Positions 21,071 to 22,362 of a stretch of 64,000 nt of DNA are shown here, piece by piece (the stretch's first letter is position 1; every line of letters begins with the position of its first letter). This DNA comes from Escherichia phage vB_EcoM_PTE-Eco15. The notes beneath the pieces were generated by a model, which did not search any database, was not told the origin of the DNA, and saw only the letters and a list, made by a program, of their open reading frames with translations. The DNA lies in the sequence record PQ352352.2, one strand, 5' to 3'. The position numbers were made by a program, and so were the translations under genes.

Positions 21071-21544
21071 ATGTTATTGACTGGCAAATTATATAAAGAA
21101 GAAAAACAGAAATTTTATGATGCACAAAACGGTAAATGCTTAATTTGCCAACGAGAACTAAATCCTGATGTTCAAGCTAATCACCTCGACCATGACCATG
21201 AATTAAATGGACCAAAAGCAGGAAAGGTACGTGGATTGCTTTGTAATCTCTGCAATGCTGCAGAAGGTCAAATGAAACATAAATTTAATCGCTCTGGTTT
21301 AAAGGGACAAGGCGTTGATTATCTTGAATGGTTAGAAAATTTACTTACTTATTTAAAATCCGATTACACCCAAAATAATATTCACCCTAACTTTGTTGGA
21401 GATAAATCAAAGGAATTTTCTCGTTTAGGAAAAGAGGAAATGATGGCCGAGATGCTTCAAAGAGGATTTGAATATAATGAATCTGACACCAAAACACAAT
21501 TAATAGCTTCATTCAAGAAGCAGCTTAGAAAGAGTTTAAAATGA
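21071..21544 (+). CDS. 49: Recombination endonuclease VII (Holliday junction resolvase)
   Basis: 157 aa; CLICQRELNPDVQANHLDHDHELNGPKAGKVRGLLCNLCN matches T4 gp49 as remembered. Confidence 0.93.
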   Translation: MLLTGKLYKEEKQKFYDAQNGKCLICQRELNPDVQANHLDHDHELNGPKAGKVRGLLCNLCNAAEGQMKHKFNRSGLKGQGVDYLEWLENLLTYLKSDYTQNNIHPNFVGDKSKEFSRLGKEEMMAEMLQRGFEYNESDTKTQLIASFKKQLRKSLK

Positions 21545-22362
21545 ATGTAGTATATAAACTATCATTTATTAATAGAATTAATGCTAAAACCCCGCCATAT
21601 TATTACATTGGAAGTAAAACTAATTGCACTTTTGACGGAACGAATATTATTGATAAAAATGGTAAATTTTATTATTCGTCTTCGTCATCTTCCGAATTTC
21701 AAAAAGCCCTGTTGAAAGAAACGCCGAAAGTTGAAATATTATATTTTCAATTAGTCGGAGATGAACAAATAACTAGCATTGAAGCTGAATTTCAAAAGAA
21801 TATAGAAAAAGATGTATGGAATAAAGAGTATTTTAATTTAGCATATGCTGATGGTCAATTTACAACGTACGGTGTTTCTCCTTCTAAAGAAACTAGAGAA
21901 AAGCAATCAATAACCATGATTAAAAGAAATCGTAATAAAGGCAAAAATCATGGATTTTATGGAAAGCATCATACTAATTTAGCCAGAAAGAAAATATCAG
22001 AAGCTTCTAAAAAATACTGGAAAGAAAATCCGCATCGTGGATTTTCGCATACAAAGGAAGCTAAAATTAAAATTGGAATTTCATCTTCTATCAGGCATAA
22101 AGGAAGTGGAAATCCGATGTATGGTGTAAAACCTTGGAAAACTCCGAGAGCAATTAAATCTGGTACTTGTATATTATGGTTAAAATACGCAGAAATTTTA
22201 TATGATTATTTAAGTCCAGATTTTAAAAGTAAATCATCTATTTTTGCGGATTTAAACTTACCAAAATTTAGAATTGATAATTTCATCAAAAGGTTTAAAA
22301 TGGGTTGGAACCCATATTTAGACGAAGAATTTCAAAAGGATAAATTAGAATTATGTCTTTAG
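21541..22362 (+). CDS. GIY-YIG homing endonuclease (free-standing)
   Basis: VYKLSFINRINAKTPPYYYIGSKTN...GKFYYSSS; 273 aa; overlaps 49 by 4 nt and nrdD by 10 nt. Confidence 0.7.
   Translation: MNVVYKLSFINRINAKTPPYYYIGSKTNCTFDGTNIIDKNGKFYYSSSSSSEFQKALLKETPKVEILYFQLVGDEQITSIEAEFQKNIEKDVWNKEYFNLAYADGQFTTYGVSPSKETREKQSITMIKRNRNKGKNHGFYGKHHTNLARKKISEASKKYWKENPHRGFSHTKEAKIKIGISSSIRHKGSGNPMYGVKPWKTPRAIKSGTCILWLKYAEILYDYLSPDFKSKSSIFADLNLPKFRIDNFIKRFKMGWNPYLDEEFQKDKLELCL

Follow-up and report, generated by a model that had tools for sequence, protein, structure and literature searches.

In phage T4 the stop codon of gene 49 overlaps the start codon of nrdD directly, and nrdD itself is split by a group I intron encoding I-TevII, with mobC between nrdD and nrdG (PMC2988022, Table 1). 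What, then, is a 273-amino-acid (aa) open reading frame (ORF) doing between gene 49 and a continuous nrdD in Escherichia phage vB_EcoM_PTE-Eco15? We analyzed a stretch of 64,000 nucleotides (nt) from this phage (record PQ352352.2), here called the window, to which all coordinates refer. By its sequence the window is a portion of a T4-like (Tequatrovirus) genome, with a nearest database match ~97% identical across 24 kb. We consider it likely that the ORF encodes an active free-standing homing endonuclease related to T4 SegG, which would probably cut the 5' part of nrdD alleles in phages that lack the gene.

The ORF is a separate gene between two complete genes, outside any intron or intein. 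Its ATG (21541-21543) shares the sequence ATGA with the TGA of gene 49 (21542-21544), and its stop codon (22360-22362) falls 10 nt within nrdD, which starts at 22353. An earlier note on this DNA had given these boundaries and neighbours; both were borne out, and Pfam agreed with the identity of the flanking genes. The same note had called nrdD intronless and the endonuclease free-standing. In the window nrdD is an uninterrupted gene of 605 aa, and an Rfam scan of 20500-25000 found no group I intron even at E ≤ 1 and no Rfam family at its gathering score; the positive control, nrdD of phage G8, returned RF00028 with 105 bits. The window thus lacks both the I-TevII intron and mobC. The contrast that had been drawn with the intron-encoded endonuclease of T4 holds insofar as the intron is absent here, but the free-standing gene is not its replacement: phages G8, Lv5cm and fPS-2 carry both, and hence the two are independent elements.

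Fixation in all related phages, which the earlier note had named as a pattern that would speak against homing, was not found. The full gene is present in 48 of ~704 phage records with the gene 49/nrdD neighbourhood (about 7%); once six GenBank/RefSeq duplicates are discounted, the 48 correspond to 42 phages. In all carriers it occupies a single site, between 49 and nrdD. The carriers belong to two genera, Tequatrovirus and, with at least four phages (ST0, AV115, JM17 and JK42), Mosigvirus. Gene copies are 97-100% identical across both genera, whereas gene 49 of the Mosigvirus carriers is only 62-85% identical to that of the window, and the gene has therefore passed between genera. All 11 sampled copies are intact. 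They differ at 48 nt, with synonymous changes only in 26 codons and amino-acid changes in 18; no invariant residue is changed, and mean dN/dS is ~0.15. The protein is therefore under purifying selection. These values, the 48 near-identical full-length copies and the existence of homologues together show that this is not a chance ORF.

Phages without the gene (T4, T2, HP3, RB32 and mar005P1) served to locate the edges of the transferred block. Up to the ATGA, gene 49 is 90-100% identical to that of T4, T2, HP3 and RB32; relative to T4 the identity is 98.5% overall, and the last ~120 nt before the ATGA are identical. From about 22571 on, nrdD is again 86-100% identical to the gene-free phages. 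The beginning of nrdD differs, with only 52-76% nt identity to the same five phages. This segment is colinear with the gene-free allele, and 48 of its 76 residues are identical, half of them with different codons, which marks it as a foreign end and not a recoded local one. The endonuclease gene is always accompanied by it: exactly 49 records have the linked allele at ≥94.9% identity, namely the 48 carriers and phage OLB35, and the next-best match, in Klebsiella phages, reaches 75%. We propose that the segment could be a cleavage-resistant replacement of the target region. The idea that the 5' end of gene-free nrdD is unusually conserved between genera was dropped, since the remainder of nrdD is conserved to a similar degree.

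The boundaries are sharp in Mosigvirus. The carrier JK42 and the gene-free mar005P1, of the same species, are mostly 95-100% identical to each other up to ~21460 and again from ~22581. Between these points mar005P1 is only 57-75% identical to JK42, while identity between JK42 and the window is 85-100%, with a single 40-nt bin below 95%. The Mosigvirus carriers change from Mosigvirus-type to window-type sequence at about 21460, and the last ~80-100 nt of gene 49 (about 21460-21544) form a conserved left homology arm in which the crossovers lie. On the right, the tracts end at about 22580-22620 in JK42 and AV115 and at about 23000-23100 in JM17 and ST0, giving at least two tract lengths. Variable flanking tracts of this kind are the co-conversion signature of free-standing T4 endonucleases (PMC2988022). 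Minimal tracts on the left (<100 nt) with long and variable ones on the right fit a break on the nrdD side. The earlier note had expected intronless homing into the nrdD or gene 49 allele of related phages. The cross-genus block, the variable nrdD tracts and the linked 5' end are in line with such homing; as to the target, they favour nrdD over gene 49.

A more precise position for the break is suggested by a relative of the protein, P0002 (58% identity, same C-terminal tail), found at 49/nrdD in a short metagenomic contig (L023; Logan SRR27536177, 2188-3180). Here gene 49 is followed by a 55-codon nrdD 5' remnant, an endonuclease copy interrupted after codon 50 and a complete nrdD, and the stop of the remnant overlaps the endonuclease ATG, again as ATGA. 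This arrangement, in a single unverified contig, suggests a break near nrdD codon 55, which corresponds to ~22515 in the window and lies inside the diverged tract. An identity comparison of the nrdD pieces of the contig did not sort them into carrier-type and non-carrier-type alleles, and scans of viral contigs found only two close copies and no further L023-like ones.

Two Mosigvirus phages carry footprints of loss. In OLB35 (MH992122.1, flagged UNVERIFIED) gene 49 abuts nrdD and the linked nrdD 5' allele is present. Its nrdD begins ATGAATGTAGTATATAAACTA (MNVVYKL), the first seven endonuclease codons, in frame with nrdD codon 8 (L019, 1980-2010); the exact 812-nt in-frame deletion equals the distance between the endonuclease and nrdD start codons. 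In FL18 (PP400780.1; L020, 1997-3488) endonuclease aa 1-202 run on in frame into the final ~18 codons of nrdD. The recognition tail and nearly all of nrdD are lost, and a canonical seg-like GIY-YIG gene follows, then nrdG. Judged by their sequences, the intact copies, OLB35 and FL18 represent the stages of invasion, maintenance and loss expected of a selfish homing gene.

What kind of enzyme does the gene encode? The protein was assigned to PHROG 7504 'homing endonuclease' (1.4e-34), and the closest characterised protein is T4 SegG, with 40% identity over aa 1-126 (BLASTP E=3e-27). The Pfam GIY-YIG profiles PF01541 and PF19835 gave no match at E ≤ 0.1, and NCBIfam TIGR01453 'group I intron endonuclease' scored 22 bits, under its cut-off of 56. 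T4 SegG likewise has no Pfam match, and we therefore regard the SegG-like group as a divergent branch that the curated profile misses. The GIY-YIG identity given in the earlier note became apparent only on deeper analysis, by global profile-profile alignment (hhalign) with canonical GIY-YIG domains, for which the I-TevI query sequence was verified against 1MK0/1LN0. In this alignment V-V-Y5 corresponds to GIY (G-I-Y6 in I-TevI), Y22-I-G24-S to YVGS (Y17-V-G19), E81 to the metal-binding E75 and N99 to N90; the GIY-to-YIG spacing is 17 residues instead of the usual 10-11. The catalytic domain has the three-stranded sheet and helices of the GIY-YIG fold. Loss of the catalytic residues, the other pattern that the earlier note had named as contrary to its reading, is not what the alignment shows. 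The protein is thus a predicted GIY-YIG nuclease of a SegG-like subfamily with a variant active site.

This subfamily is small. A search of 1.84 billion proteins with the catalytic domain returned 144 clusters at 50% identity, in which the domain is always N-terminal and the C-terminal parts vary in length. In an alignment of 142 domains Y5, Y22, G24, K26, Y44, S47, E81 and N99 are invariant or nearly so (Y5, Y22 and G24 in 139-141 of 141, E81 in 140/142, N99 in 141/142), and R12 is present in 114/127. The 273-aa protein has all of these residues and holds every signature residue of the group (M-N-x-V-Y ... R ... P-P-Y-Y-Y-I-G-S-K-x-N-C ... Y-x-G-S-S ... E ... Y-F-N). The position of I-TevI R27 has no aligned Arg in the protein, nor is an Arg conserved at this position across the family alignment. 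We read this as a variant active site and not as inactivity, because active SegG and I-TevII also lack that Arg; K26, possibly R12, likely stands in for it. Placing the YIG strand at 'KFYYSSS' had come from an ambiguous 11-residue hhalign match of the family to the single I-TevI sequence, and was dropped in view of the global profile-profile alignment and the same 'YIG ... Y-x-SSS' order in I-TevII.

Behind the catalytic domain, Pfam NUMOD3 (PF07460) matched aa 130-153 with 33 bits (cut-off 20.4), and 'G(K/x)xH(S/T)xExxxKI' motifs recur in this region of the family alignment. The C-terminal tail has the motifs PWKTPRxIKSG...W and FK(L/M)GWNPYLDxEFQK in common with P0002 and a further protein, P0004. 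Confidence of the structure model is low for the tail. A MAFFT alignment hints at a relation to the tail of SegG, but by BLASTP the similarity of the two tails is not significant. Another homologue, P0003 (273 aa; L021, ENA ERZ13617658 contig, 4001-4822), has the same catalytic domain at 56% identity and a different C-terminal half; its gene is located in another T4-like phage, between baseplate genes 5 and 5.1. The SegG-like family therefore occupies several insertion sites, and the apparent domain swap fits modular re-targeting.

The nearest model for this element is SegG itself, which lies between genes 59 and 32 of T4, cuts T2 gene 32 and co-converts from a distant site (PMC2988022). Both proteins belong to the same divergent catalytic subfamily, with the same invariant set of Y, Y-I-G-S-K, Y-x-x-S, E and N. 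Both genes are free-standing, promoter-less cassettes just upstream of the presumed target gene, and intronless homing with co-conversion, the mechanism expected here, fits that of SegG (PMC2988022). They differ in locus and presumed target (49/nrdD here, 59/32 for SegG). The 273-aa protein exceeds SegG by 63 aa and has NUMOD3 repeats inserted behind its catalytic domain, and its gene overlaps both neighbours and lacks embedded promoters for the downstream gene. I-TevII shares with it the GIY-YIG superfamily, the association with nrdD, the local 'YIG...Y-x-SSS' pattern and the missing Arg. However, I-TevII is encoded in a group I intron ~0.5 kb into nrdD, and its sequence has no significant similarity to the 273-aa protein (BLASTP E=1.0). 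Since, moreover, some phages have both genes, we dropped the idea of a freed I-TevII, and the alignment check against Seg and I-Tev enzymes proposed in the earlier note identifies a relative of SegG. With the archetypal catalytic domain of I-TevI (PDB 1LN0/1MK0) identity is ~18-21%; in the 273-aa protein a 7-residue helix is inserted between GIY and YIG, and YIG is followed by a beta excursion of ~20 residues. Counterparts of R27, H31 and H40 are missing; invariant in their stead are K26, Y44 and S47. SegF at gene 56 and MobC/SegH at nrdD/nrdG, further T-even endonucleases encoded beside genes of nucleotide metabolism, resemble the present case as free-standing genes beside their targets with marker exclusion and co-conversion (PMC2988022, Table 1), but their sites are the opposite end of nrdD or different loci, and MobC is an HNH enzyme. 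The vicinity of nrdD is a known hot spot, with mobC in T4 and the seg-like gene at nrdD/nrdG in FL18. The latter is of the canonical Seg type ('YIGAHS...GYMGSG'), without significant similarity to the 273-aa protein. Free-standing T4 endonucleases generally cut hundreds of bp away from their own gene and co-convert the flanks (PMC2988022).

We therefore envisage the following course of events. Transcription of the gene would probably start from a resident middle promoter located within the 3' end of gene 49, and translation from a start codon taken over from nrdD. In the gene product, NUMOD3 linker repeats would connect a nuclease domain at the N-terminus to a recognition tail at the C-terminus. 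In mixed infection the enzyme would cut the genome of a gene-free relative within the initial ~220 nt of nrdD, perhaps around codon 55, and repair from the carrier genome would copy a ~1.04-kb block made up of the endonuclease gene and the diverged nrdD 5' end. In the carrier, the diverged end would no longer match the target. The left crossover would fall in the conserved end of gene 49, the right one at differing points within nrdD. A more far-reaching and more doubtful joint reading, which we put forward tentatively, is that of a self-contained ~1.04-kb cassette that carries a replacement 5' end for its target together with an enzyme of a distinct active-site variant. The 218-nt segment, colinear and with 63% amino-acid identity, would then have three roles at once: it would confer immunity, act as a heterology block that enforces co-transfer, and provide nrdD with its new translation start region. 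The enzyme, in which invariant Lys26, Tyr44 and Ser47 replace the canonical Arg and His residues, would be mechanistically distinct.

Active homing could also proceed from a cut outside the diverged nrdD segment, which would then be only a passenger. The site might be the original gene 49/nrdD junction, destroyed by the insertion, or the conserved 3' end of gene 49. The insertion lies exactly at that junction, and the last ~100 nt of gene 49 together with the ATGA are conserved across genera, as would suit a cleavage site. Cleavage of the carrier's own genome is a property of some free-standing phage endonucleases, SegH and Hef among them. We nevertheless regard this version as rather unlikely. 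With left tracts of <100 nt and right tracts that are obligatory for 218 nt and then variable, the break would be on the nrdD side; the diverged segment is never separate from the gene in the 48 carriers; and in the L023 contig the interruption of nrdD lies at codon 55 and not at the junction. Characterised free-standing enzymes, too, cut at a distance from their insertion site (PMC2988022).

Cleavage itself may have been lost, leaving a DNA-binding or translational-coupling accessory for nrdD, or a recent relic, in a block that moves by ordinary homologous recombination. To this we give little credence. T4-like genomes are highly recombinogenic mosaics by their identity patterns, nrdD translation now depends on sequence within the endonuclease ORF, and the protein lacks a Pfam GIY-YIG match and the canonical Arg. 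Yet dN/dS is ~0.15, all catalytic-domain residues invariant in the subfamily are intact, and SegG, with the same motif set, is active (PMC2988022). The 1.04-kb block in Mosigvirus is heterologous, near-identical to the window inside and 62-85% identical outside, with at least two right tract lengths. In OLB35, moreover, nrdD takes over the endonuclease start codon after the loss, so the gene is not needed for nrdD expression. That the nuclease serves mainly another use, such as degrading competitor or host DNA or amplifying the locus, strikes us as highly improbable, even though T4 EndoII, also a GIY-YIG enzyme, degrades host DNA (PMC1564403) and SegB is reported to promote segmental amplification of anti-defence loci. 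NUMOD3 and a recognition tail, a single fixed site, linked replacement of the target gene and the pattern of gain and loss are those of a site-specific homing element, and the neighbouring genes give no hint of a defence or anti-defence locus. An active SegG-like endonuclease directed at the nrdD 5' end is accordingly the reading we prefer.

How would such a gene be expressed? The pattern TGCTTYA-N11-13-TANNNT occurs 12 times in the window, as against 2.7±1.5 expected, and none of 100 shuffles reached 12. One of these MotA-type motifs lies at 21453-21478, where the T4 sequence is identical. It is probably the resident nrdD promoter, now serving the endonuclease and nrdD; the identity in T4 implies that the endonuclease gene was probably inserted between nrdD and its promoter, using nrdD's former translation start. 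With the nrdD start inside the 3' end of the endonuclease gene, translation of nrdD is probably coupled to that of the endonuclease, and the OLB35 deletion indicates that nrdD can regain the upstream start after gene loss. A hairpin predicted to pair the endonuclease start codon (z = -2.48; 4 of 200 shuffles fold as well) could conceivably act as a translational damper, a suggestion to which we attach little weight. No T4 late promoter TATAAATA was found near the endonuclease gene. Matches resembling sigma-70 promoters are not enriched in the region (12 versus 8.7±2.8), and for this reason we do not count a 10/12 match upstream of nrdD, at 22274-22301, as a promoter. A promoter annotation in phage Lutter, which straddles the endonuclease ATG, is a weak prediction and was likewise set aside. 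Other MotA-box sites, 4-5 times commoner in the window than in shuffles and probably real T4-type middle promoters, lie for example at 28630, 32670, 33217, 33847 and 48720.

Many records already annotate the gene as 'homing endonuclease', and that of JK42 as 'SegG homing endonuclease'; our searches of the literature turned up no account of an endonuclease at 49/nrdD. The element is of an ordinary, well-known kind and leaves current concepts unchanged. It adds an apparently active member to the small SegG-like branch, at an insertion site absent from the T4 reference set. Public genomes provide an unusually complete natural history for it, with a near-isogenic pair of carrier and non-carrier, sharp block boundaries and two independent decay products. 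The locus is thus convenient for studying how free-standing endonucleases move between genera and protect their own genome, and the endonuclease helps to explain the mosaicism around nrdD in therapeutic and model T4-like coliphages. The features of the locus are collected in Table 1.

Table 1. Features at the gene 49/nrdD junction of the window
Feature	Position	Strand	Description
Endonuclease gene	21541-22362	+	ORF of 273 aa; putative free-standing SegG-like GIY-YIG homing endonuclease
Catalytic GIY-YIG domain	21541-21864	+	aa 1-~108; Y5 (GIY), Y22-I-G24 (YIG), K26, Y44, S47, E81, N99
NUMOD3-type linker and DNA-binding repeats	21877-22110	+	aa ~113-190
C-terminal tail	22111-22359	+	aa ~191-273; presumed target-recognition module
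Gene 49 (endonuclease VII)	21071-21544	+	Left flank; Pfam Endonuclease_7 and Endonuc-dimeris (EndoVII dimerisation domain)
nrdD (anaerobic ribonucleotide reductase)	22353-24170	+	Right flank, proposed target; Pfam NRDD (7e-170) and Gly_radical
Foreign nrdD 5' segment	22353-22580	+	~218 nt; nrdD codons 1-~76
MotA-type middle-promoter-like motif	21453-21478	+	TGCTTCA, 13 nt, TATAAT; in gene 49 3' end, 63 nt upstream of ATG
Predicted RNA hairpin at endonuclease start codon	21540-21570	+	In minimum free energy and centroid structures of 21480-21600

Further out, Pfam identifies Pin at 20526-21029, and nrdG follows nrdD from 24167. A terminator-like hairpin with a 10-bp stem and a following T run lies between pin and gene 49 (21041-21065, plus strand); in phages G8, Lutter and fPS-90 it is likewise annotated as a terminator. 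At the nrdD/nrdG junction (24133-24239, plus strand) Rfam gave a weak L20_leader match of 26.5 bits (gathering score 58.7, E=0.037), most likely by chance.

At least four selfish genes of endonuclease type, the one described above included, lie in the 64-kb window. A 259-aa ORF in the nrdC-side gene cluster (10248-11027, plus strand) was assigned to PHROG 655 'homing endonuclease' (1.3e-56) and is 40% identical to the N-terminus of the HNH enzyme T4 MobC, making it a candidate free-standing endonuclease. Two seg-like ORFs of 239 and 224 aa (13102-13821 and 49285-49959, both plus strand) belong to PHROG 314 'homing endonuclease' (1.9e-30 and 2.2e-23). A 248-aa homologue of the Srd anti-sigma factor (53784-54530, plus strand; PHROG 1400, 3e-108) has, in its N-terminal part, weaker matches to HNH and endonuclease VII-type families.

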